Below, one piece after another: positions 37,222 through 64,000 of a stretch of 64,000 nt of DNA (positions are counted from its first letter, which is position 1; every line of letters starts with the position of its first letter). Both the position numbers and the translations under genes were made by a program. The notes under the pieces are model-generated. The model ran no database searches and was not told where the DNA came from. It was given only the letters and a program-made list of their open reading frames with translations. Origin of the DNA: Escherichia phage KKP 3954; the sequence record OR067838.1; one strand, given 5' to 3'.

Positions 37222-37458
37222 ATGGGTAAACTAATTATGACAGTGGCTATTGATTTTGATGAAGTAGATGAAAGCCTCAACCTTTCACTTTCTACTGATG
37301 TAGAGGGTGAAATGGATAATATTGAAGCAGCTACTGCTCTTTTCTTCAAAAAGGCCATTGAAGTTTATGCCGAACATGCTGCAAATCAGGCAGTAGATTA
37401 CGGTGGTATCGTGCGAGCTTTGGTTCACTCTACCGAGGACAATGACTGGGAAGACTAA
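37222..37458 (+). CDS. hypothetical acidic protein
   Basis: 78 aa. Confidence 0.5.
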   Translation: MGKLIMTVAIDFDEVDESLNLSLSTDVEGEMDNIEAATALFFKKAIEVYAEHAANQAVDYGGIVRALVHSTEDNDWED

Positions 37459-37661
37459 TGGCTTACAATTATTACTGCATTTATGCACATGAAAAGAAGA
37501 AAGGTGACACTGGGACTAACGTTTATGCGGAGTCTGAATCTCATGCAAAAGAGATTGGTGCTATCCTTTTATCACGCTGGACTGGAAATAATTACAGTGC
37601 AGAAGATATGTTTGCAGAAGTGGATTCTAGTATCCAAGAAGGCAACATAACAACTACGTGA
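37458..37661 (+). CDS. hypothetical protein
   Basis: 67 aa; ATGA overlap. Confidence 0.45.
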   Translation: MAYNYYCIYAHEKKKGDTGTNVYAESESHAKEIGAILLSRWTGNNYSAEDMFAEVDSSIQEGNITTT

Positions 37662-37707
37662 TATACTTATACTCCCTTCTCGGAGGGAGTATTTTTAAGG
37701 AGGGATT

Positions 37708-37902
37708 ATGCAGAGCGGAGAAGAACTTTTAGAGAAACAATTCTCAACGCGTCAACAAGCTTTAAGTTATATGGTTTTTCTAAGCAATCTTGATGTGAAT
37801 GAGATACTTTTACGGCGCGAAGGTAATTTCTGGAGCGTTAAATACCATGCAACAAGATCTGTAATCTACCTAGAAGAGGCGGAATTCTCTTTGGTAGAAT
37901 GA
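37708..37902 (+). CDS. hypothetical protein
   Basis: 64 aa; AGGAGGG RBS; preceded by hairpin plus T-run. Confidence 0.45.
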   Translation: MQSGEELLEKQFSTRQQALSYMVFLSNLDVNEILLRREGNFWSVKYHATRSVIYLEEAEFSLVE

Positions 37903-50896: not shown

Positions 50897-51092
50897 TTCT
50901 ACCTCCTTCAATGCTTTGTGCCATATCATCCCAAGCCATTAGAATGTTTTCCAATAGTTCACGAGGCTCTTTAAACCAAACTTCCATTTCATCAAGAATC
51001 TCGTCCGTGTCGTAAGTATAACCTGGAACACCAAGTTCACATTTCTTAATATAACTTTCTAACCAACGATGATAAGTCTTAGCCCCATTCAT
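50889..51092 (-). CDS. hypothetical protein
   Basis: 67 aa. Confidence 0.45.
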   Translation of the reverse strand: MNGAKTYHRWLESYIKKCELGVPGYTYDTDEILDEMEVWFKEPRELLENILMAWDDMAQSIEGGRNE

Positions 51093-51465
51093 ACTGTGCT
51101 ACCTTTTCTTTTACCCAATCTACGCGATCTTTGTCATAATGTTGAGTGCCAAGGAAAAGACCATTGTGGAAACTTTCCTCACCGAAAGGATAAATTGGAT
51201 CTAAACCATCTTCTTCAAACAACATTTTTAATCTGTTTGATGTAGATTTCTTAGTTTCTGAATTGTAGTTTGTGGTTATAAGCCAATCTTCCAAACAACG
51301 ACACAAGCCTTGACGAGAATCCCAAGGAAAAACACAATCTCCGACAGGAGCTTGTTCCGCCCATTTCAACCAACCTTTAAAAAAGTTATACAGTATATAG
51401 TCTTCAGTGTAATACATTAGCTCCTCCTTTACATATACAATAACACCCCGCAGAACGGGGTGCAA
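51079..51465 (-). CDS. paralog family A member 1 (GLC / PF / WVKDR motifs)
   Basis: 128 aa; FFKGWLKWA, GLCRCL, PIYPFGE, RVDWVKEKV. Confidence 0.55.
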   Translation of the reverse strand: MHPVLRGVIVYVKEELMYYTEDYILYNFFKGWLKWAEQAPVGDCVFPWDSRQGLCRCLEDWLITTNYNSETKKSTSNRLKMLFEEDGLDPIYPFGEESFHNGLFLGTQHYDKDRVDWVKEKVAQYEWG

Positions 51466-52084: not shown

Positions 52085-52327
52085 TTACCCCCAAGAAATA
52101 GCTATGTATCTTACAATGTTTGCACTGTCTAAAGCCATGTTTGCACCACACCCACGCTCGCGCCAGTAACTAACAATACCTTCACAAATACTCTCTTGTA
52201 TCTTCTTATCATTTGGCATTTCTAATATAAGACTTGGGTTGTGGATGTTTATGTTATAATATCCTTCCTCTGCGGCTTGAGCTACCAATTTACTCACTTT
52301 TTCAAAATACAGGGGAATTAGTGGCAT
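52085..52327 (-). CDS. hypothetical protein (YWRxxGC motif, possible family C)
   Basis: 80 aa; IVSYWRERGCGAN. Confidence 0.45.
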   Translation of the reverse strand: MPLIPLYFEKVSKLVAQAAEEGYYNINIHNPSLILEMPNDKKIQESICEGIVSYWRERGCGANMALDSANIVRYIAISWG

Positions 52328-52357: not shown

Positions 52358-52756
52358 TTATTCTGCCTCATCATAGAAGAAATCCAACTCTTGTTCCAGT
52401 TGTTTAACTCGATCCTTAACCCACTGTACACGTTTTTCATTAAACATGCAACGTTTTTCCTTACACTCTTGCTCAAAAGATTTTGCTGTGTTAAATGGGA
52501 AAGTTGTATCTAAGCCAGCGTTTTCAAAACTGGCTAATTGCATACCATAAACAGAATATGCTAAAGAATGCTCGGCCCGAAATTCATCACTTATATACAT
52601 ACGTAGACCTCGGCATAAGCCAACATCAGCGTAACCACTTTCTCTTGGAAAGAGACGGAGGTGTTCTAACCAATTATTATAGAAATCTAAAAGAATCCTC
52701 TTACACTTCAAATCGATTGTCATAAAAAGTTTCTCCTTCATCGAACAAGTTGGCAA
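52358..52756 (-). CDS. paralog family A member 2
   Basis: 132 aa; FYNNWLEHL, GLCRGL, TFPFN, RVQWVKDRV. Confidence 0.55.
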   Translation of the reverse strand: MPTCSMKEKLFMTIDLKCKRILLDFYNNWLEHLRLFPRESGYADVGLCRGLRMYISDEFRAEHSLAYSVYGMQLASFENAGLDTTFPFNTAKSFEQECKEKRCMFNEKRVQWVKDRVKQLEQELDFFYDEAE

Positions 52757-53131: not shown

Positions 53132-53809
53132 CTATTTAATGTTCAATCTAGCACACAAGCGAGAAACAGTTTTAGCATCCCACTTACCACCACGTGCTGT
53201 TGCGATTTTCTTACTATTGAATTTTTCAGCAATAGTTTTGTAAGGTGTATTTAAATCTCTAAGGATTTCTAAGCGTTCACGGAATGTCTCTGCAAAAGCG
53301 TCTGCTTTAACAGAATTGTATTCCATTTTTCCTTTTCTACGTGCAGCAGCAGTTTTAGGATTAGCACTGCCTAATAAAACACCTTTGCTTTTTGCTACAG
53401 CAAGACCCTTTTTAATACGATCAGCAATACCTCTAACTTCTTGTTCAGCCAGAACAGACAGAAGCTGTATAACCATTTTATCTGCGTCTGGCATGATGGC
53501 TATCTTAACATCGATCATTTCTAGAAGAGTTGCTACGGAGGCGTTGTTACGACCCAAGCGGTCAACTTTAGCTACCAATAAAGTTGCTCCGGTAGCTTTA
53601 CACATTTCAACCGCTTTAACCAGTTCCTTACGTTGCTTCCAATCGCCCTTACCCGAATAGTATTCAGAAAATTGACCAATAACTTCCGCATCAGGTACAG
53701 AGTCTAAGAAGTAACGGATATCGTTCTCTTGGCTCTCCATACCATATTGTGCCTCACCTTTTTTCTGTTTAGAAAGACGACTGTAAACAACAAACTTTTT
53801 CATAACCAC
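53132..53809 (-). CDS. small serine recombinase (resolvase/invertase family)
   Basis: 225 aa; catalytic VYSRLSKQ ... SQ, VAKVDRLGRN, C-terminal HTH-like region. Confidence 0.7.
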   Translation of the reverse strand: MVMKKFVVYSRLSKQKKGEAQYGMESQENDIRYFLDSVPDAEVIGQFSEYYSGKGDWKQRKELVKAVEMCKATGATLLVAKVDRLGRNNASVATLLEMIDVKIAIMPDADKMVIQLLSVLAEQEVRGIADRIKKGLAVAKSKGVLLGSANPKTAAARRKGKMEYNSVKADAFAETFRERLEILRDLNTPYKTIAEKFNSKKIATARGGKWDAKTVSRLCARLNIK

Positions 53810-53873
53810 TCCTAAACCATTGCTGTATTCTCACTTTACAAAACGAATAAACACTTGTCAAGGTATTTATTAT

Positions 53874-54086: not shown

Positions 54087-54410
54087 TCACGCCCCCTGTT
54101 TTAGTCGAAAAATATTTTGAATAACTAGAGATGTATAGTTATCACTTAGTCCCATAAGTTCTACTTCCAAGTTTCGAATATCTTCCACCGTAGGAGGATA
54201 TGTTGGTAAAAATGCTTGAGCATTGCCAGATCCAACCTCATTGCTGTAAGCAGTTGTAAAATTGTAAGATACAAAACATGAAACACCTTTTTGTCGGTAC
54301 CCGATTAATCGACGAATACACCAGATAAGAGCCAAACCTATGAGAACACCTCCTAAACCAGCTAACAAGAAGGATAAGTTTATAATAGCTTCGTTAACAA
54401 CTGCTTGCAT
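54087..54410 (-). CDS. hypothetical membrane protein
   Basis: 107 aa; N-terminal TM segment LAGLGGVLIGLALIW. Confidence 0.5.
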   Translation of the reverse strand: MQAVVNEAIINLSFLLAGLGGVLIGLALIWCIRRLIGYRQKGVSCFVSYNFTTAYSNEVGSGNAQAFLPTYPPTVEDIRNLEVELMGLSDNYTSLVIQNIFRLKQGA

Positions 54411-55489: not shown

Positions 55490-55695
55490 TCAGGGAACAC
55501 TTTGTGGAAGACACGTGTTGTTTCTAAGAGAAATTCCAACTCTTTTTCCAAATCTGCGTTCCAACCGTTTATTTTAACACGGATTGCCAATGCACTTGCA
55601 CGGCGACTCAATTCTTGACAGATTGGATCACGCAGAACTATTGAGTCATAAAACTGACAAACAGCCTCAAGTTCATACCAGTTATAATCCGACAT
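55468..55695 (-). CDS. hypothetical protein
   Basis: 75 aa. Confidence 0.45.
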   Translation of the reverse strand: MSDYNWYELEAVCQFYDSIVLRDPICQELSRRASALAIRVKINGWNADLEKELEFLLETTRVFHKVFPEWFEMEE

Positions 55696-56021
55696 TATTC
55701 ATCCTCCTCTGCAATACGATCTCTTACCCAATTAATCCTGTCCACGTTCAGGTGACATACCTTTGCATCTGATTCTAAGACATATGCATCGTAGTTCTCA
55801 TTGAAAGGGAGTTCTTGACTCAACCCTTTGTGGTAAAACTGTGCGTGCATTTCATCTGACAAGGTTGTTATAATGGGGTTGTAATTACCTCTGTGCACAT
55901 AATCGAACAAGTTGGCACACAAACCACAATCCCGCCGAAAAGGTTTACCATCAGGAGCACCAACATCAATCCATGCTAGATAAATTTTATAAAACTCCAT
56001 CAAATCTTTACTTGTTTTCAT
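55695..56021 (-). CDS. paralog family A member 3
   Basis: 108 aa; FYKIYLAWI, GLCANL, ELPFNE, RINWVRDRI. Confidence 0.55.
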   Translation of the reverse strand: MKTSKDLMEFYKIYLAWIDVGAPDGKPFRRDCGLCANLFDYVHRGNYNPIITTLSDEMHAQFYHKGLSQELPFNENYDAYVLESDAKVCHLNVDRINWVRDRIAEEDE

Positions 56022-58639: not shown

Positions 58640-58840
58640 TTATGCTCCTTTGTAGATTATGTTGGTGCGTTCACACTCTGCCACCAGCAAGCGATTAGCA
58701 ATGTTGTCCATAGGAACATCAATCTCTACGCTCCAGGCGTTGATATACACTTCTTCAATCTTTGCTCCAAGCATTTGTGCGATCAAGGCAACAGCCCCAG
58801 CATATTCAAGTTTAATCTCAATTACCATTTTGCACCTCAA
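58640..58840 (-). CDS. hypothetical protein
   Basis: 66 aa. Confidence 0.45.
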   Translation of the reverse strand: MRCKMVIEIKLEYAGAVALIAQMLGAKIEEVYINAWSVEIDVPMDNIANRLLVAECERTNIIYKGA

Positions 58841-58842
58841 GG

Positions 58843-59079
58843 TTATTTATCTTGCTTGTATCTTACAAGGCGATCACACTCCAGGTCAAGAAATTTCTCC
58901 GCATTTCGTTCATGTTTGAGCACAATACATTGTTCTTTCAAGTCTGTAGCTCTTTGCTGCGCGGCTCCTGGGTCAAAATCCCAAAGCCATGCAGCGAAAA
59001 GAACCACCATAACAATTGCCAAGAAAACAAACACTATAGGCATTGCACATCCTCCTGTGTGGCATGATCTTTTACCCAT
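58843..59079 (-). CDS. hypothetical membrane protein
   Basis: 78 aa; TM segment IVFVFLAIVMVVLFAAWLW. Confidence 0.45.
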   Translation of the reverse strand: MGKRSCHTGGCAMPIVFVFLAIVMVVLFAAWLWDFDPGAAQQRATDLKEQCIVLKHERNAEKFLDLECDRLVRYKQDK

Positions 59080-59348
59080 TTTATACGAGCAGCATTCAAA
59101 TGTAGCAGCCCGTTTCTTTGTGCAAAATCATATTTAAACCAATCCCCATCATCAAACGGGTATTCTTCAGACAAACCTGCTTCGCGGAATTGCATTTGCA
59201 TTTCATAATTTAGGTCATCATAACCACCAGACCAAAGATATAGGCAGCTACATAACCCTTTATCATGCCAGAAAGGATTATTATCTGGAGCACCAGCTAA
59301 CAGCCAGTTATGATATGCCTGATAAAATTCTTTAAGTTCCTCTGACAT
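59034..59348 (-). CDS. paralog family A member 4
   Basis: 104 aa; FYQAYHNWL, GLCSCL, EYPFDD, RIKWVKDH. Confidence 0.55.
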   Translation of the reverse strand: MSEELKEFYQAYHNWLLAGAPDNNPFWHDKGLCSCLYLWSGGYDDLNYEMQMQFREAGLSEEYPFDDGDWFKYDFAQRNGLLHLNAARIKWVKDHATQEDVQCL

Positions 59349-59591
59349 TTAACCTCCTGTGTGCAGTGTTGAAAGATACACAGCAAAAGCATTCTCGGCT
59401 GTTTTCACCTCCTCTTCAAGATCTTCACGCTCTGCTGGTGTTAGTGCATTTCGCACAGCAGCGTCTGCTTCTCGGATTTTTCTTACTAAACGTGAAACAT
59501 CTTTCAGTTGTTGAAAAGTAGCCATAATCTTTCTCCTGGAATCTCTGTGATCTCCCCTTTGCGGGTTTCGAAGATGGTATCCCCTTTTCAA
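59349..59591 (-). CDS. hypothetical protein
   Basis: 80 aa. Confidence 0.45.
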   Translation of the reverse strand: MKRGYHLRNPQRGDHRDSRRKIMATFQQLKDVSRLVRKIREADAAVRNALTPAEREDLEEEVKTAENAFAVYLSTLHTGG

Positions 59592-59806
59592 TTAGTCGGA
59601 TTTTCATATCGTGCTTCCTTCAATGCGAGTAATGCGTTCACCAGATTATCAACACCTTGATCATCCAGTGCGATAACATCGAAGTTAAACCCTGTATCAG
59701 TTGGGACTTTACGTTTTATGGTGTAATAGTCTCCTTCATGACGTTCAACATACGCGTATGGGTAACTGCTGTTTGGATCATGTTTCACGCGAATAGATGT
59801 TTTCAT
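59588..59806 (-). CDS. hypothetical protein
   Basis: 72 aa. Confidence 0.45.
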   Translation of the reverse strand: MKTSIRVKHDPNSSYPYAYVERHEGDYYTIKRKVPTDTGFNFDVIALDDQGVDNLVNALLALKEARYENPTN

Positions 59807-59821
59807 GTTTTGTTCTCCTCT

Positions 59822-60121
59822 TTAGTCAAACCAGTCGTATTCAGAAGGGTAACGAGCGTAGTTTGGCTTATACCCCAGTCTTTTCATCTTAACAGACATA
59901 CGAGTGAAGCCAAAGGTTGTTTTGCCCTTAGACATAAACTTCTTCCCGCTCTTCATTGGCTTCTTAGGGTTTTTGATCGTCTGGTGTAACGCTCGCGCAA
60001 GCCACAGAGTGTATGCGCTCGGCACTTGATTAACTTTCATCTTGTTACCTTTCATCGAAACCTCCTTAGTGAACTTCGTGCCAAGTGCCAAACTCTTCTG
60101 CTGATACTTTAGGAACGGCAT
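59822..60121 (-). CDS. hypothetical basic protein
   Basis: 99 aa, Lys-rich. Confidence 0.45.
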   Translation of the reverse strand: MPFLKYQQKSLALGTKFTKEVSMKGNKMKVNQVPSAYTLWLARALHQTIKNPKKPMKSGKKFMSKGKTTFGFTRMSVKMKRLGYKPNYARYPSEYDWFD

Positions 60122-60293
60122 GAGTTTCTCGGTATTTGTTTAAAGCTTTCTCAACGGCTGTAGCAAAAACATCTTGTGATTTATGAGGCATATAATAAGA
60201 GCGCCCCATATATGCTACTGCATCACGTAATTCTTCTGCTTGCTCTTGTGTAACTGTCAATGTGATAGTAACCATTATTTCACCTCCGACCAA
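60066..60293 (-). CDS. hypothetical protein
   Basis: 75 aa. Confidence 0.4.
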   Translation of the reverse strand: MVGGEIMVTITLTVTQEQAEELRDAVAYMGRSYYMPHKSQDVFATAVEKALNKYRETHAVPKVSAEEFGTWHEVH

Positions 60294-60574
60294 TCAATAG
60301 TGATCCACTCGTATGCCCCATTCAGATCCATTTCTTTATAAACAATAAGCCCACGCTCACGAAGAATTGCTACTGCTTCATCCATCCACTTCACCTGATT
60401 GTAGATCGCCCCTGGGTGGGTAGGGGAATTATCCAGACCAAAATCAGATGGCGTGAAATTTCTTGAAGAGTTTCCCGCTCGTGCTTCAGCAAAACATGTC
60501 TCGATCACTTCTTCAACAGGGAAGTTGAAGGAAGCTTCTTTTGCAATACGGCGTAACTGTTCGGTCAGATTCAT
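60275..60574 (-). CDS. hypothetical protein
   Basis: 99 aa. Confidence 0.5.
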   Translation of the reverse strand: MNLTEQLRRIAKEASFNFPVEEVIETCFAEARAGNSSRNFTPSDFGLDNSPTHPGAIYNQVKWMDEAVAILRERGLIVYKEMDLNGAYEWITIDWSEVK

Positions 60575-60601
60575 CTTATTCTCCTTTCGTTGTGCGAAAC
60601 A

Positions 60602-61039
60602 TTATAACAGATCTAATGCTTTCAATTCTTCTTTCAATGATTCAGGCAAGTCACATTCAATGTCAATCAGGGATAACAAGTGACCAACAATGCCTTCCAG
60701 ATGTTGATACTCACTATAACTTATAAATTCAGAATTGTAAACAGAAACATCCTTAGTTTCTTTCACAACTTCCCCCGCAGACACGCACATAAAAAAGTTA
60801 CGCTCTCCGCGAGCTAACAATATCTCCCAACTTCTGAACGGATACTGTCCAGCTTCAATAATATCTCCGCTGTCCAATAAAGTCAATGAGCAAACAGACC
60901 CTGATTCACTAACATCTTCGACGCGGAAACAAGACCCTTCAATCAAAGCTGCCATTTTGAAATTTTCATCAGAGATCATAGAGAAAGCTTCACAGGCAGC
61001 TTTAGTTTTGAAACAGTAAACAGCATTAACTTTAAACAT
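60602..61039 (-). CDS. hypothetical protein
   Basis: 145 aa. Confidence 0.5.
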   Translation of the reverse strand: MFKVNAVYCFKTKAACEAFSMISDENFKMAALIEGSCFRVEDVSESGSVCSLTLLDSGDIIEAGQYPFRSWEILLARGERNFFMCVSAGEVVKETKDVSVYNSEFISYSEYQHLEGIVGHLLSLIDIECDLPESLKEELKALDLL

Positions 61040-61051
61040 AACATTCCCCTT

Positions 61052-61510
61052 TTAAACAAAAGATACGCCGATGGTAGCAACAACCAAACGTTTATAAACT
61101 TCAACCTCTTCTGTAGGATTAGCCATTTTATGCTCTGCTGCTTCTTTCAAAGCTTCTTCATAACTTTGAGATCCAGAGATACAGGTGTCACCAGTCATTA
61201 CAACATACCACTCTTCTTTTGTTGTATCAACAGGCTCTTCTTGGGGTTTTCCACGACCACCACGAACACCGCCGTCAACAAAATAATCTATATGAGCAGA
61301 ATTGATTATGTAACGATCCCCATCGCCAGCAGTGATAATACCGTCCCTCATACCTATCACAACCATTGACAAGATATTACCATTTGTATCAGTGCTCAAC
61401 ACCTCGAAAAAATTCTCTCCGATGATAGCTGCAATACTGTTATCAAAGGTAGAATATAGTCGCATATAATCCTCATCCTGGAAACGGTAGACATGACCTT
61501 CTTTAAACAT
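61052..61510 (-). CDS. hypothetical protein
   Basis: 152 aa. Confidence 0.5.
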   Translation of the reverse strand: MFKEGHVYRFQDEDYMRLYSTFDNSIAAIIGENFFEVLSTDTNGNILSMVVIGMRDGIITAGDGDRYIINSAHIDYFVDGGVRGGRGKPQEEPVDTTKEEWYVVMTGDTCISGSQSYEEALKEAAEHKMANPTEEVEVYKRLVVATIGVSFV

Positions 61511-61964
61511 TGTTCTCTCCTCCTAACCCATCATACCATTTCAAAGCGTCTTTTGGAAGCATACCAAAATCTTCTTTCAGTTCTTTTTCAATCTCTTCTT
61601 GCATTTCCATCAGCATTTTCAATTGACGAACTTTTTTGTGCATAGCCACATTCCTTTCATTAAGGTTTGTCACTACATTATTTGCACGACTCGGTGGAAA
61701 CGACAAAGGTTTCACGGGAAGATAATCTTCGATATTATCTAGCGCGTTACGAAAATTATGATCCAAGAAACGCACATCTACACGATTGTAATCGGCAGCT
61801 ACAACAGTGAACACTTTAAACGGCACATTGGATAAAGTATGTTGCACACAGACAATACCCATATTGCCTTCAATTTTACTATTAACTTCCAGCAAACCTG
61901 TATGAGCACTAACATAATCGTGAACACATTGCACATAAGCTGCCAGTATAGAGAATTGTCTCAT
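61503..61964 (-). CDS. hypothetical protein
   Basis: 153 aa. Confidence 0.5.
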   Translation of the reverse strand: MRQFSILAAYVQCVHDYVSAHTGLLEVNSKIEGNMGIVCVQHTLSNVPFKVFTVVAADYNRVDVRFLDHNFRNALDNIEDYLPVKPLSFPPSRANNVVTNLNERNVAMHKKVRQLKMLMEMQEEIEKELKEDFGMLPKDALKWYDGLGGENNV

Positions 61965-62182
61965 TTTCTACCTCCCCATAATGCTAACATTTTATTGAAA
62001 ATGGAAACGCGTCGTGCGCGAGATGCCATATCATAATTCATTCTTTCCGTCTCTGCAAGAAATTGATCTACTGTAATCAACGCTTCTGTCTTCTCTTTCA
62101 GAGTTTGCATATTCATCCATTCACATTCAGAAGTACCAATTATCGAAATACAAACTATCGAGAAGATCCATTGCTGCTTCAT
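61961..62182 (-). CDS. hypothetical protein
   Basis: 73 aa. Confidence 0.45.
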   Translation of the reverse strand: MKQQWIFSIVCISIIGTSECEWMNMQTLKEKTEALITVDQFLAETERMNYDMASRARRVSIFNKMLALWGGRK

Positions 62183-62213
62183 TCTGTTGTGGTGTGATCA
62201 TTGCACACAACCC

Positions 62214-62444
62214 TTAATAGACAATTTCATATTCGTGAGGAAAGAAAACATAATCTTCCCCTTCTCGTGCATCTATCTCGTCCCAAAACCATTCCTGCAC
62301 TTCCATCATCTTCGAGAATCGCACATGAGCAAGCCCACTGTATTCCACAGTAGCTTCCAACACAAGTGGAAATTTTGCATGTGCCAATCCTTTATAACCA
62401 CCATCATTCTCAATACGAATTTTCATGCGTTTCATGTTATGCAT
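62214..62444 (-). CDS. paralog family B member 2
   Basis: 76 aa; EWFWDEIDAREGEDYVFFPHE. Confidence 0.5.
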   Translation of the reverse strand: MHNMKRMKIRIENDGGYKGLAHAKFPLVLEATVEYSGLAHVRFSKMMEVQEWFWDEIDAREGEDYVFFPHEYEIVY

Positions 62445-62646
62445 CCTTCAGACCCTTAATAAAGTAACGACCAACCAGATTCCCTCGGAAGTATTCGTTA
62501 ATGAAATCGATAACACACGTTTCACTGCCTGTCACAACGGACGGCTTAAAGTTTTGGAATTCTACAGCTACACGGCTGGCTTTAGCCAGTGCTTGCACAC
62601 GTGTAGGATCAGTCAAGAACATTGTGACAGTTTTCAAATTCTTCAT
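62437..62646 (-). CDS. hypothetical protein
   Basis: 69 aa. Confidence 0.45.
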   Translation of the reverse strand: MKNLKTVTMFLTDPTRVQALAKASRVAVEFQNFKPSVVTGSETCVIDFINEYFRGNLVGRYFIKGLKDA

Positions 62647-62695
62647 TTCATCTCCTCATTGGCTATCTGTTATGTCATCCATTATACAAACATCT

Positions 62696-63079
62696 TTATT
62701 CAATGCAAGCATTATTTACATCTTCAATCCGATCTTTCACCCACTGAAGACGTAACGTGTTGGTATGACACGCCAAGTTTATACACTCTGAAAGGTAATC
62801 CATGCAATCCACATTGAACGGAAGATTGTAGTCCAGCCCTGCACATGTAAATTGTTTCCTCATTTCATATTTCAAACGGTCCAACAAATGATCACGCCAT
62901 TTTCTATCTTCTTCTCTAGGTGTCTCACCAACAAAATCATCTACATAATCTACCAGACAACCACATAAGCCACTCGTTGTGCGATTCATTGCAGGATAGT
63001 TGGCAATCCATGCTTTATAGAAGCGAAGCAATGTTGCACTGCTCAACGGAATACTATTTGTCATCTTTCTCTCCTTCAT
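62696..63079 (-). CDS. paralog family A member 5
   Basis: 127 aa; FYKAWIANY, GLCGCL, NLPFNVD, RLQWVKDRI. Confidence 0.55.
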   Translation of the reverse strand: MKERKMTNSIPLSSATLLRFYKAWIANYPAMNRTTSGLCGCLVDYVDDFVGETPREEDRKWRDHLLDRLKYEMRKQFTCAGLDYNLPFNVDCMDYLSECINLACHTNTLRLQWVKDRIEDVNNACIE

Positions 63080-63398
63080 AATCTTGAATTCTATCTAGCA
63101 CCCATTGTATACGATGTTTGTTTTTATGGCAAATATGTTTTTTATGTTCAAAGGTGTATTCCTCATAACCACCTTCATTAAACGGGAAATTGTAATCCAA
63201 TCCTGCACCAATAAACTGTGATTTCATCTCCTGTTGTAGACGAGGTAACAGTTCATCAGGGTATGTTCCCTCTACATACTTAATCAAACATATGCACAAA
63301 CCACTCGTTGTGTGACCTTCTACCTCACCAGCAAGCCAAGCTTTGTAAAACTTCATTAGACGTAAACTACTTAACGGAACATTTTTACTCTCTTGCAT
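63054..63398 (-). CDS. paralog family A member 6
   Basis: 114 aa; FYKAWLAGE, GLCICL, NFPFNEG, RIQWVLDRI; overlaps member 5 by 26 nt. Confidence 0.55.
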   Translation of the reverse strand: MQESKNVPLSSLRLMKFYKAWLAGEVEGHTTSGLCICLIKYVEGTYPDELLPRLQQEMKSQFIGAGLDYNFPFNEGGYEEYTFEHKKHICHKNKHRIQWVLDRIQDYEGEKDDK

Positions 63399-64000
63399 GA
63401 TAATCTCCTCTCATCGTTAGCTATCTTTCATGGCAATCATCAATCACCAACATCATACGATCAATCTTAGGGAATTACAATCGAATTATCATAGGGGATT
63501 CCTATCAATTATCCCATATATACCGATTATTTTTGACACCCCACTCTTGTATAAAAAGTAACCCAAAATATCTACGGGAAGAGATTATTTCGACACACCC
63601 TGTTTCATGGCAAGCATGGCAAGAATATCTAATAGAATCAATATCATATGGCAAAAATCATGGCGCATACGTAAGAAGTGCTTAACGCGAATTTTCGGGC
63701 CGTCAGGTCCACGCAGCGACAATTCCCAAATATCATGAGAATGAGAATAATTATCATTCGTATTCAATGACTTATGCAAGGCTCATGCCAACATAGCGAC
63801 AAGGTGGCCCACCTGATTATAAATCACACAAACACTTATTTATCAATGGCTTGGCAACTTCATCATATGACGGAACAATGTCAACTGATCCCGCCCATGA
63901 CAAGCAGACTATTATTTATATGAGAATGATTATTATTTAAACGTTTATTAGCATATAAACTAAAATAAATCAAGAATTTTCTGATTTTATTTACGTTTAA
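63399..64000. repeat. non-coding region with CATGGCAA-type repeats
   Basis: About 600 bp without convincing ORF; TCATGGCAATC, tandem CATGGCAAG-CATGGCAAG, TCATGGCGC, CCCATGACAAGC; AT-rich tail to window end. Confidence 0.4.

Follow-up and report, generated by a model that had tools for sequence, protein, structure and literature searches.

A conserved small serine recombinase of phAPEC8-like Escherichia phages and its possible roles in lytic infection

A site-specific recombinase in a phage genome is usually taken as a sign of lysogeny. The described systems closest to the gene considered here are the large serine recombinases of 450-700 aa (Bxb1, phiC31, SPbeta SprA/YokA, TP901-1 and the Listeria A118 type), the small resolvases and invertases (gamma-delta/Tn3, Sin, beta and RP4 ParA; Hin, Gin and Cin), and the transposase TnpA of IS607, a serine recombinase which can be the only protein that an element needs for moving. 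A functional analogue only is Cre/loxP of phage P1, in which a tyrosine recombinase of a temperate plasmid-prophage acts alone on one site per genome and cyclises or monomerises the phage DNA. Identical or orthologous proteins of the one described here are deposited as 'DNA invertase' (phi92 gene_053), 'resolvase' (ESCO13) and 'serine recombinase' (UP17), all of which are homology-based guesses. A role in 'keeping concatemers as single genomes' has been speculated upon (PMC10282059), and the ESCO5 paper overlooks the gene in stating 'no recombinase-coding genes predicted' (PMC10269720). No functional study of the recombinase or of its subfamily was found in the literature searched.

Here, the gene was analysed in a 64,000-nt stretch of DNA (hereafter, the window) of Escherichia phage KKP 3954 (OR067838.1), which is a Phapecoctavirus, phAPEC8-like, that is, a virulent E. 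coli myovirus of ~150 kb. A sequence-only reading had already pointed to a small serine recombinase among early-type genes, and the features now located are collected in Table 1.

Gene and domain structure

The recombinase gene is carried by the minus strand, where an open reading frame spans 53132..53809, while the plus-strand translation is riddled with stops. The 225-aa frame described earlier is thus real and of resolvase/invertase size, but its strand is minus and its true start is the ATG at 53803, 6 nt downstream of the GTG at 53809, which gives 223 aa. The ATG is preferred because the AGGAG motif overlaps the GTG and sits 5 nt before the ATG, and because public records start there too. 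The gap 5' of the gene measures 64 nt and is filled by a putative promoter. Promoter hits in this region occur at chance level in the scan, and support for this one rests instead on its recurrence across lineages: TTGACA/TTGACT-16/17-TAnnnT or CATACT is also found before the orthologous genes of phiWec181, phi92, a Klebsiella phage, Vibrio phage 1.170.O and ICP1, so that the gene has a promoter of its own in six lineages, and the promoter region has zero substitutions in nieznany and vB_Ec-G1. The recombinase gene therefore appears to be a self-contained transcription unit, which we infer to be expressed early. As the sequence-only reading had it, the gene is embedded among early-type genes: it lies in the terminal-repeat-proximal arm, ~10 kb from the equivalent of the phi92-type terminal repeat at the window's right end, and is surrounded by ~60 small genes of early type.

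Table 1. Positions, in window coordinates, of the recombinase gene, its signals and domains, and related sites
Feature	Position	Strand	Basis or remark
gp54-like gene, left of the empty site	37458-37661		
'Empty site', 46-nt spacer with terminator hairpin (ACTCCCTtctcggAGGGAGT + T-run)	37662..37707	+	Synteny, tblastn, junction sequences
gp52-like gene, right of the empty site	37708-37902		
Inverted pair I1, left arm	52105..52139		Weak, candidate only
Serine recombinase CDS (223 aa plus stop)	53132..53803	-	ORF list, Pfam, PHROG, public annotations
C-terminal four-helix DNA-binding domain, ~77 residues	53135..53365	-	Profile and structure comparison
Catalytic domain and long helix E, residues 1-146	53366..53803	-	Invariant residues, AlphaFold model, fold matches
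Ser11 nucleophile codon	53771-53773	-	
Shine-Dalgarno AGGAG, 5 nt 5' of the ATG	53809..53813	-	Read from the sequence
Putative own promoter of the recombinase gene, sigma-70 type, TTGACA-17 nt-TAAAGT	53833..53861	-	Promoter scan, 10/12
Inverted pair I1, right arm	54239..54273		Weak, candidate only

The catalytic core claimed for the protein is borne out by several lines of evidence. The motifs VYSRLSKQ, ESQ and VAKVDRLGRN are all found in it, with YSRLS fitting the Y-x-R-x-S nucleophile motif near the N terminus, and the Pfam Resolvase profile (PF00239) scores 65.9 bits over residues 7-144 (E=5.4e-18), where 23.3 bits would suffice. The PHROG_125 family 'DNA invertase' is matched with E=1.1e-32, and these matches greatly exceed chance; PHROG_95 'integrase' is a secondary match. 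Across 40 aligned family sequences, no variation occurs at Y7, R9, S11, Q25, D81, R82 and R85, and conservation is at least 90% at R58, E120, E122 and R129, which indicates that the nucleophile and its supporting residues are intact; the catalytic serine, whose replacement, along with a lack of recombination sites in the genome, had been named as what would speak against the assignment, is unchanged in every sequence. The AlphaFold model (mean pLDDT 92) has a beta-alpha core and a helix at 109-139, and the catalytic domain, which begins at residue 5 and is followed by a C-terminal DNA-binding domain, matches the folds of Sin, gamma-delta and TP901-1, and also of IS607 TnpA, its best sequence matches being Gin, Tn3 and gamma-delta. 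Judged from its sequence, the protein is a member of the serine recombinase superfamily with a complete set of catalytic residues. In addition, an extended loop separates the nucleophile motif from the conserved S-Q (YSRLSKQKKGEAQYGMESQ), as in the large serine recombinases.

The C-terminal part had been described as HTH-like, which stands insofar as a putative helical DNA-binding domain is present, but the domain is related to PF07508 and is not HTH_7. HTH_7 matched neither the protein itself in Pfam nor any of 40 relatives (0/40), while PF07508 (Recombinase) was matched at E<0.01 by 26 of the 40 family members; in the protein itself, residues 189-218 match profile positions 19-48 of 102 with E=0.003 and 18.2 bits, below the cutoff of 21.1. 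Among PDB entries searched by profile, only the SPbeta integrase aligns through the C-terminal region, to residue 217, and the longest structural alignments are those to Bxb1 and SPbeta, while small resolvases align over the catalytic domain only. On these profile and structural comparisons, the C-terminal module of ~75 aa is akin to a truncated 'Recombinase' domain, of which it corresponds to the opening part in large serine recombinases, and the protein is best seen as a stand-alone enzyme of a short, 'large-serine-recombinase-like' subfamily. Neither Pfam nor the model gave a zinc ribbon or a coiled coil, no Cys cluster is present, and the protein ends at residue 223. Accordingly, the earlier statement that it is not a large serine integrase is true by size and fails for the ancestry of its DNA-binding module.

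Conservation, relocation and homologues

The gene was found in 132 records, compared with ~129 full-length terminase matches, and is thus present in essentially all of the ~130 Stephanstirmvirinae records. From these sequence comparisons, it is near-universal and under strong selection. Some ~60 Phapecoctavirus records share a protein that is 100% identical. Values of dN/dS are 0.000-0.015 inside this genus and 0.13-0.19 from one genus to another, and all 18 nucleotide differences between nieznany and the window gene are synonymous. The reading frame is intact in 62/64 records, phAPEC8 included. The Schickermooser record has seven small deletions within the 5' 300 nt of the gene, but taking it as a pseudogene, and hence as proof of dispensability, was rejected because the deletions are clustered like sequence-quality problems and phAPEC8 is intact. 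The low dN/dS, the identity among genomes and the universal presence in the subfamily refute the suggestion that the gene might be what is left of a mobile element, as far as a remnant is meant. Carriers in the phage collection are all phages of 130-160 kb, the identical protein is shared by phages whose isolation hosts range widely over E. coli, Shigella and Klebsiella, and the family diverges to ~30% identity with the catalytic residues still invariant. A search for other contexts of the exact protein gave a single assembly context, identical to the window.

In sister genera, the promoter and the recombinase gene are found as a unit of ~740 bp at different loci with clean boundaries. The unit lies between the gp54 and gp52 genes in phi92 and Klebsiella phages, as seen by synteny and tblastn, while in the window it adjoins a gp013-like (DUF7202) gene and the position filled in phi92 and its Klebsiella relatives is an empty site (Table 1). 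In ESCO13, the breakpoints of mosaicism coincide with the gene's 5' edge, with the whole flank replaced and the protein identical, and the ICP1 homologue is located within an accessory cassette replacing GP31-GP40 (ICP1 isolate 2017_DRC_82). Each major lineage has one position for the gene. The junction sequences revealed no terminal repeats or shared end sequences at the cassette borders, and no conserved partner gene was found, the neighbours being PHROGs of unknown function and DUF7202. On this synteny, the recombinase gene is best described as behaving like a relocatable cassette of promoter and gene.

Complete genomes of E. coli, 5,426 in number, had no match to the gene and its flanks in chromosomes or plasmids, and the phage genomes examined showed no integrase associated with lysogeny. 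On 109 plasmids, homologues occur over the full length (35-40% identity, 95-99% coverage), and 92 of these plasmids are non-mobilizable; they include replicons of 5.8-7.3 kb, among them a 5.8-kb Klebsiella plasmid and a Marinovum plasmid, on which, apart from the recombinase, genes are annotated for replication, for a ParA-like protein and for a few hypothetical proteins. Such homologues on small non-mobilizable plasmids favour a resolvase-type role on a single-copy site. Moreover, in a prophage, a homologue with 43% identity is enclosed in a segment bounded by a 19-nt, 95%-complementary inverted pair, and inversion of that segment keeps both reading frames, of 215 and 186 aa, open; this homologue looks like an invertase in sequence, which suggests that the recombinase family is functionally versatile.

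Recombination sites and possible roles

No recombination site of the recombinase was identified in the window, in the repeat and dyad screens of the complete genome or in the terminal repeat. The earlier remark that no large inverted repeats lie nearby holds across the whole 64-kb window and also for the complete 151-kb genome of a 98%-identical relative, in which no inverted pair of at least 22 nt at 88% identity or more was found besides terminators. The window has a weak inverted pair, I1, that is not conserved. The long inverted and direct repeats of the window and of a complete genome comprised only terminators and, in the right arm, direct repeats of ~45 nt that are likely elements of promoters or 5' hairpins, and bracketing inverted pairs compared in six lineages followed no consistent pattern. 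In a genome-wide screen, no dyad of 24-32 bp recurs, and the three dyads shared between genera are a terminator, a box resembling that of Fur and a palindrome within a baseplate gene, where the sequence is conserved locally; a single-copy site would fit the lack of any dyad or repeat that recurs in the genome. There is no res-like region of multiple subsites beside the gene, where the 64-nt gap is taken by the promoter and the palindrome is imperfect. This promoter palindrome, AATAAATAC-N8-GTGTTTATT, was rejected as a res-like site, its right arm being unconserved in phiWec181 and its flank replaced in ESCO13, and the res-like motifs sought upstream of the small-plasmid homologues gave nothing transferable. 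A site in the terminal repeat, following the Cre-lox idea, was also rejected, the conserved palindromes there resembling Fur boxes, as was a 4.6-kb indel relative to nieznany as a resolvase product, its endpoints sharing only 11-nt microhomology.

Among the roles proposed earlier, namely driving an invertible segment, resolving replication multimers or being a remnant, the resolution of replication multimers is the most plausible, and we tentatively suggest a resolvase-type monomerisation or cyclisation of the phage replicative DNA at a putative single-copy site. Soon after infection, recombinase dimers would bind one short dyad-type site, with one copy per phage genome, and a resolvase-type deletion between two directly repeated copies of this site on one molecule would leave the replicative DNA monomerised or cyclised; the plasmid homologues presumably do likewise for plasmid multimers. 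Both the substrate and the direction of recombination are what we infer. Several points count against a resolvase. The searches gave no site anywhere, and none of res type beside the gene as in classical resolvases, and a virulent phage that packages concatemers and has short terminal repeats has no obvious need for monomerisation, Cre itself being dispensable for P1 lytic growth. Furthermore, the argument from plasmids is indirect, no experimental test of any plasmid member having been found in the literature searched, and the 43%-identical prophage homologue looks invertase-like. That the recombinase instead acts in trans on DNA other than that of the phage (host chromosome, prophage, satellite, plasmid or co-infecting phage), where it would cut or rearrange a target site in takeover or against competitors, seems rather unlikely, although a gene among small early genes behind a promoter for the host RNAP, with no site detectable in the phage genome itself, would suit such a function. 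The accessory cassette of ICP1 is a typical arms-race locus, and serine recombinases can be exploited in conflicts between satellites and phages (PMC9638900). However, no partner gene is conserved, and an identical protein over such different hosts would require an equally universal host target. A little less probable still is a selfish, self-mobilising cassette of promoter and recombinase, comparable to IS607-type transposases or free-standing homing genes and of no benefit to the phage. The different loci with clean boundaries, the empty site in the window, the breakpoints at the gene's edge in ESCO13 and the accessory location in ICP1 would all be expected of it, but the gene is not patchy, being carried by essentially every member of the subfamily at a single position per major lineage, its borders are without terminal repeats or shared ends, and ordinary phage mosaicism explains the relocation equally well.

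A DNA invertase operating a switch is improbable. The candidate segments are two, of which the first is bracketed by I1, a 2.1-kb segment containing the recombinase gene, with arms complementary at 27/35 positions, as good as which none of 300 composition-matched resamples was. However, in other genomes the pair reaches 26/35, ESCO13 lacks the right arm despite an identical recombinase, and inversion would shorten a 107-aa open reading frame to 54 aa; I1 is probably not functional as a site. The second, outside the window, is a real inversion polymorphism of ~1.2-1.5 kb among Stephanstirmvirinae at a divergent promoter region, in which phi92 differs from PD114, VEcB and all Phapecoctavirus. 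Its flanks are 95-97% identical and the segment itself 89-93%, its junctions are non-reciprocal, with differing RBS/linker sequences and an extra gene, and inverted cores of 10 nt or more are absent from its breakpoints, which together point to old alleles and not to a live switch. The prophage homologue within its inverted pair also speaks for an invertase, while the lack of longer inverted pairs in the complete genome speaks against one, and no flipped arrangement around the gene exists in 61 related genomes, so that the invertible segment proposed in the sequence-only reading is not supported. Very improbable is a DNA-binding regulator built on a recombinase fold that controls its own expression through promoter dyads, with recombination secondary or lost. 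The dyad in the window overlaps the -35 box and, in a Klebsiella phage, two arms of 10 nt that pair perfectly (ATGAAGAGTA/TACTCTTCAT) span the spacer and -10, but these dyads vary in position and sequence by lineage and are absent in phiWec181 and ESCO13, and a pure DNA binder would not need catalytic residues that stay invariant down to ~30% identity. Least probable of all is an integrase for lysogeny or pseudolysogeny, or a decaying mobile-element remnant, as the secondary match to PHROG_95, the DNA-binding module akin to that of serine integrases and the deletions in Schickermooser might suggest. Against this, the zinc-ribbon and coiled-coil domains which serine integrases use for att-site selection are lacking, dN/dS is close to zero with a frame intact in nearly all records, and the lesions in Schickermooser look like a matter of sequence quality. 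With no segment bounded by inverted repeats, and with the gene and its flanks absent from the complete E. coli genomes, invertase and integrase roles are both unsupported.

The conserved gene suggests that lytic growth has an as yet unexplained requirement for site-specific recombination. Phage-therapy pipelines screen for site-specific recombinases (PMC10282059). As this one is selected and universal, with no sign of integration, its presence alone should not disqualify a virulent group widely proposed for therapy. Proteins of ~220 aa in which a catalytic domain of resolvase type is combined with a DNA-binding module of integrase type form a large class, with thousands of clusters at 50% identity. 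It is rather unlikely that this strictly virulent lineage employs its core early, minimal recombinase for a task that no lytic phage is known to need, either Cre-like cyclisation or monomerisation of a genome with short terminal repeats at a cryptic single-copy site or site-specific attack on host, prophage or satellite DNA in takeover or against competitors. If true, site-specific recombination would thereby gain a role not previously described in lytic infection, and a very large uncharacterised recombinase subfamily its first function; if active on simple sites, these proteins might also serve as compact genome-engineering tools.

Comparison with known systems

With the large serine recombinases, the phage protein shares the catalytic domain, helix E and a helical DNA-binding module related to the start of PF07508, whereas at 223 aa it is without what follows in that domain and has neither zinc ribbon nor coiled coil, and its gene has no attP/attB, no match in the E. 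coli genomes that would indicate lysogeny and no directionality factor nearby. The relocation of the phage cassette is reminiscent of IS607, but TnpA has an N-terminal MerR-like DNA-binding domain, in the reverse order to the phage protein, and the ends of the phage element are undefined. Cre resembles the phage protein in its proposed action only, and no lox-like site was found in the phage genome. The small resolvases and invertases have the same size, catalytic domain and active-site residues as the phage protein, but differ from it in that its C-terminal domain is not HTH_7, no multi-subsite res adjoins its gene and no segment is flanked by inverted crossover sites; with the plasmid enzymes, the phage protein may have a resolution-type role in common.

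Gene call, genomic setting and conservation

The open reading frame that the sequence-only reading placed at 53132-53809 exists, and the motifs quoted for it are present in the minus-strand ORF, while plus-strand translation of the same interval meets stops throughout. The strand is therefore minus, and the start is corrected from GTG 53809 to ATG 53803, which lies 5 nt downstream of an AGGAG ribosome-binding site and is the start used in public records; since both favour this codon, the coding sequence is taken as 53132-53803 (223 aa).

Coordinates of the features discussed (window positions unless another genome is named; L-numbers denote comparison loci with their own local coordinates)
Feature	Position	Strand	Remark
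Ribosome-binding site AGGAG	53813-53809	minus	overlaps the GTG taken as start in the sequence-only reading
Sigma-70-type promoter TTGACA-17-TAAAGT	53861-53833	minus	promoter scan
I1 inverted pair	52105-52139 / 54239-54273		brackets the recombinase gene; top-ranked inverted pair in the window
Empty site	37662-37707		46-nt spacer between gp54-like 37458-37661 and gp52-like 37708-37902
Equivalent of the phi92 343-bp terminal repeat	about 63,683-64,000	minus-strand reading	last ~320 bases of the window
Fur-box-like palindrome GAGAATGAGAATAATTATC	63737-63755		3 mismatches to consensus; chance ~0.07 per window
Fur-box-like palindrome AAATAATAATCATTCTCAT	near 63920-63938
Inversion segment, vB_Ec-G1	114.0-115.5 kb (L019 14000-15520)		outside the window
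Inversion segment, phi92	131.07-132.35 kb (L015 31070-32350)		outside the window
Inversion segment, further copy in PD114	L020 2142-3786
Inversion segment, further copy in VEcB	L021
Prophage inverted pair	L010 7534-7552 and 9177-9195		arms in a baseplate-domain gene and an opposed ORF

The window region is 97-98% identical to genomes of Phapecoctavirus (among them vB_Ec-G1, nieznany, ESCO5 and phAPEC8). Members of this genus are virulent E. coli myoviruses with genomes of ~150 kb and belong to the Stephanstirmvirinae. Phage phi92 of the sister genus Justusliebigvirus has annotated 343-bp direct terminal repeats, whose two copies were verified as identical; because the equivalent of this repeat ends the window, the right end lies close to the physical genome end and the recombinase gene ~10 kb inside the terminal-repeat-proximal arm. 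Its location in this arm of small minus-strand genes fits the earlier description of early-type genes. At least five paralogous small early proteins are encoded in the window (51079-51465, 52358-52756, 55695-56021, 62696-63079 and 63054-63398; all minus), sharing the C-terminal signature ...GLD..(L/F)PFN....R(I/V)(Q/N/D)WV(K/R/L)(D/E)(R/K)(I/V)... and matching nieznany genes annotated VOG7392 and phi92 gp006/gp010; two of the five lie within ~2 kb of the recombinase gene, one on each side.

A consensus-like sigma-70 promoter was found directly 5' of the recombinase gene in 6/6 lineages examined. The promoter scan count in the region was at chance level, so support comes from recurrence across lineages and zero substitutions in the promoter region rather than from the count. 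Expression from this dedicated promoter-like element, which is conserved across lineages, would be early and host-RNAP-dependent.

About 60 Phapecoctavirus records encode exactly the same protein (100% identity), and all 18 nucleotide differences between the nieznany and window genes are synonymous. Within the genus, dN/dS was 0.000-0.015; in comparisons with phiWec181, phi92 and a Klebsiella relative it was 0.13-0.19. Nucleotide search recovered the gene in 132 phage records, compared with about 129 full-length matches for the terminase gene, and it is therefore essentially universal in the subfamily. Such strong purifying selection, near-universality in a virulent subfamily and protein identity speak against the suggestion of a mobile-element remnant; as judged by sequence comparison, the recombinase is a selected core gene of virulent Stephanstirmvirinae, not a remnant. 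The 5' half is free of length change in 62 of 64 records, phAPEC8 included. In the one outlier, Schickermooser (comparison locus L016, 1501-2223), seven small deletions (1-7 nt) all fall in the first ~300 nt, with the remaining 400 nt in frame and nearly identical, which may reflect a local sequencing or assembly problem rather than true decay.

Protein architecture and relatives

Pfam Resolvase matches residues 7-144 (E=5.4e-18), and PHROG_125 'DNA invertase' also matches the protein (E=1.1e-32). Across a 40-member family alignment, Y7, R9, S11, G21, Q25, D81, R82 and R85 are invariant and R58, E120, E122 and R129 are at least 90% conserved, and the active site is accordingly complete. In the confident AlphaFold model (pLDDT 92), the beta-alpha catalytic core is joined by a long helix E (109-139), and four helices make up the C-terminal domain. 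The C-terminal region had been described as HTH-like, but the HTH_7 domain of resolvases/invertases is excluded, with 0/40 relatives matching it. Pfam Recombinase (PF07508) gives a sub-threshold match in the protein itself and is matched by 26 of the 40 relatives, and in a profile search the SPbeta large serine integrase was the only PDB sequence aligning through residue 217. Neither a zinc ribbon nor a coiled coil was found in the protein. It is a short serine recombinase, 'integrase-flavoured' in that its DNA-binding module is of the integrase type. This short architecture is abundant: a full HMMER scan returned 6,026 cluster representatives at E<=1e-3, of which 2,542 reached E<=1e-10. Among the top 150, nearly all have lengths of 209-260 aa and align from end to end.

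Full-length homologues (35-40% identity, 95-99% coverage) are carried by 109 plasmids, 92 of them non-mobilizable. Examples include 5.8-7.3 kb replicons of Klebsiella, Marinovum, Synechococcus and Phaeobacter. Besides the recombinase, these are annotated with genes for a replication protein and a ParA-like protein, plus a few hypothetical ones. Other plasmid resolvases are multimer-resolution enzymes, and the lone serine recombinase of these small plasmids would most plausibly act likewise. Further homologues occur in prophages and on a small primase-carrying element. In one prophage, a large serine integrase adjoins the short homologue, which is therefore not the integrase there. This prophage homologue (43% identical), on a contig from Logan run ERR14228542, is the same protein, P0071, as on NCBI assembly GCA_049170095.1 (locus L011). 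The 1.6-kb segment that contains it has at its ends the arms of a 19-nt inverted pair, 95% complementary (chance expectation estimated about 0.005); upon in-silico inversion, both hybrid ORFs stay open (215 and 186 aa), and the segment is plausibly a protein-swapping inversion switch. The family is thus probably versatile, its members acting as resolvases in certain settings and as invertases elsewhere. More distant homologues, at 30-39% identity, are encoded by 130-kb Vibrio phages and by ICP1 isolate 2017_DRC_82, where the gene belongs to an accessory cassette substituting for GP31-GP40. This eight-gene block without earlier GP numbers, between GP30 and GP41 (locus L007, 245-4357), is a variable accessory locus of an otherwise well-studied phage; none of six neighbours tested had a Pfam match.

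Public databases already list the window protein, variously as DNA invertase, resolvase or serine recombinase. In a number of GenBank and RefSeq entries, among them phAPEC8_ev052, Mt1B1_P17, AV125 and 10C3_SA_NWU, it is wrongly called 'methionine ABC transporter ATP-binding protein', and in nieznany the neighbouring 70-aa DUF7202 gene is labelled ABC-transporter; these labels look like propagated mis-annotations. PMC10282059 does no more than speculate on the role of the recombinase, and PMC10269720 overlooks it. The literature searched yielded neither experimental work on the short-recombinase subfamily nor a study of this architecture in virulent phages.

Recombination sites, inversions and cassette mobility

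The earlier remark that no large inverted repeats lie nearby extends to the whole window, where none was convincing. The weak pair I1 reaches a complementarity of 27/35, attained by 0/300 resamples; it is probably not functional, being 26/35 in other genomes and lacking its right arm in ESCO13, and its inversion would only truncate a 107-aa ORF. Among inverted pairs of at least 22 nt at >=88% identity, the complete, reconstructed 151-kb genome of vB_Ec-G1 contains terminator hairpins only. No inverted arrangement around the gene was seen in any related genome compared, and the exact protein is recorded in a single assembly context, the same as in the window.

A genome-wide screen for 24-32 bp dyads gave 31 in vB_Ec-G1 and 40 in phi92 versus about 15 in shuffled sequence, with none recurring within either genome. 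Three are common to both genera: one in a conserved baseplate-gene stretch, a terminator and a Fur-box-like element. The sequence inside the baseplate-protein gene, AAGATAGATCAggcaaTGATCTATCTT, is a perfect 11+5+11 palindrome that is identical in both genera, where its surroundings are also highly conserved (vB_Ec-G1 68270, L018 18270-18296; phi92 84457, L014 34457). The terminal-repeat palindromes, with a TTGACA -35-like box between them, look similar to E. coli Fur boxes, and this weakens the case for a Cre-lox-like site there. A 4.6-kb stretch of small minus-strand genes (58692-63326) is missing from nieznany; its endpoints share only an 11-nt direct microhomology, CACCAGCAAGC, which makes it an illegitimate deletion rather than a site-specific product.

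Outside the window, vB_Ec-G1 and phi92 depart from collinearity in a single place, a ~1.2-1.5 kb segment at a divergent promoter region. Justusliebigvirus includes both orientations (one in phi92, the opposite one in PD114 and VEcB), and the flanking sequences are 95-97% identical. Inversion flips p214-p216 and fuses or splits p217: phi92 encodes a fused 183-aa protein, and in PD114, VEcB and all Phapecoctavirus its N and C parts are separate. Three observations speak against a switch still operated by the recombinase: the junctions are non-reciprocal (each orientation has its own RBS/linker, and PD114 an extra gene), the breakpoints have no inverted core of at least 10 nt, and the segment (89-93% identical) is more diverged than its flanks. 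The polymorphism has the appearance of two long-standing alleles that homologous recombination has spread, and may stem from an ancient recombinase-mediated event.

Other non-coding elements were observed in the same genomes. In vB_Ec-G1 (121.5-129.5 kb; L019 21500-29500; outside the window), a family of ~45-nt direct repeats with a GC hairpin, TATCAC[A/G]TAGGGCGGC...GCCGCTCA, precedes many small right-arm genes, probably as repeated promoter or 5'-UTR elements. The non-coding region beside the right terminal repeat (L019 31480-31630; L015 47830-47980; outside the window) holds conserved hairpins, one with compensatory changes between genera (AGCCTATG...CATAGGCG versus CGCTACG...CGTAGCG), and a 19-bp near-perfect palindrome, GCTTGCAAyAATTGCAAGC; all of these may have a part in packaging or serve as origin or terminator.

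Promoter and recombinase lie between gp54 and gp52 in phi92 and Klebsiella relatives, within a block HslV-MTase-...-HisRS-like-NinI-DprA. This block is found on the window's plus strand as well, where the corresponding empty site holds only a terminator hairpin, ACTCCCTtctcggAGGGAGT, followed by a T-run; its own recombinase unit adjoins a gp013-like DUF7202 gene in the other arm. Between phi92-type and window genera, backbone proteins are 57-85% identical and the recombinase 57%. In ESCO13, a mosaic breakpoint falls exactly at the recombinase start codon. The different loci in sister genera and this breakpoint therefore indicate a relocatable promoter-plus-gene cassette, or 'moron'; no repeats or shared ends were found at its borders.

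Possible functions

On the most economical reading, the enzyme would act like a resolvase on replicating DNA of the phage itself, at a site present in one copy. This is favoured tentatively and at clearly less than an even chance, because it fits both the plasmid homologues and the lack of any site that recurs. Against it, searches of the window and related complete genomes found no such site, and it is not obvious why a virulent phage that packages from concatemers would need to make monomers. Action in trans on host or competitor DNA is unlikely, and self-mobilisation of the cassette somewhat more so: the unit's different loci in sister genera favour the latter, but its borders bear no trace of shared ends. 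That the enzyme drives an invertible segment, as had been suggested, is improbable, with no inverted pair of at least 22 nt besides terminators in the 151-kb genome and no related genome flipped around the gene. A regulator would be very improbable. Least probable is an integrase or remnant, as a search of 5,426 complete E. coli genomes with the gene plus flanks gave no match and there is thus no evidence of integration.

The enzyme belongs to an ordinary class and apparently has an important role in lytic phages. Compared with known systems, the recombinase differs from the canonical small resolvase/invertase family, and also from the large serine integrases, in defining features of each.
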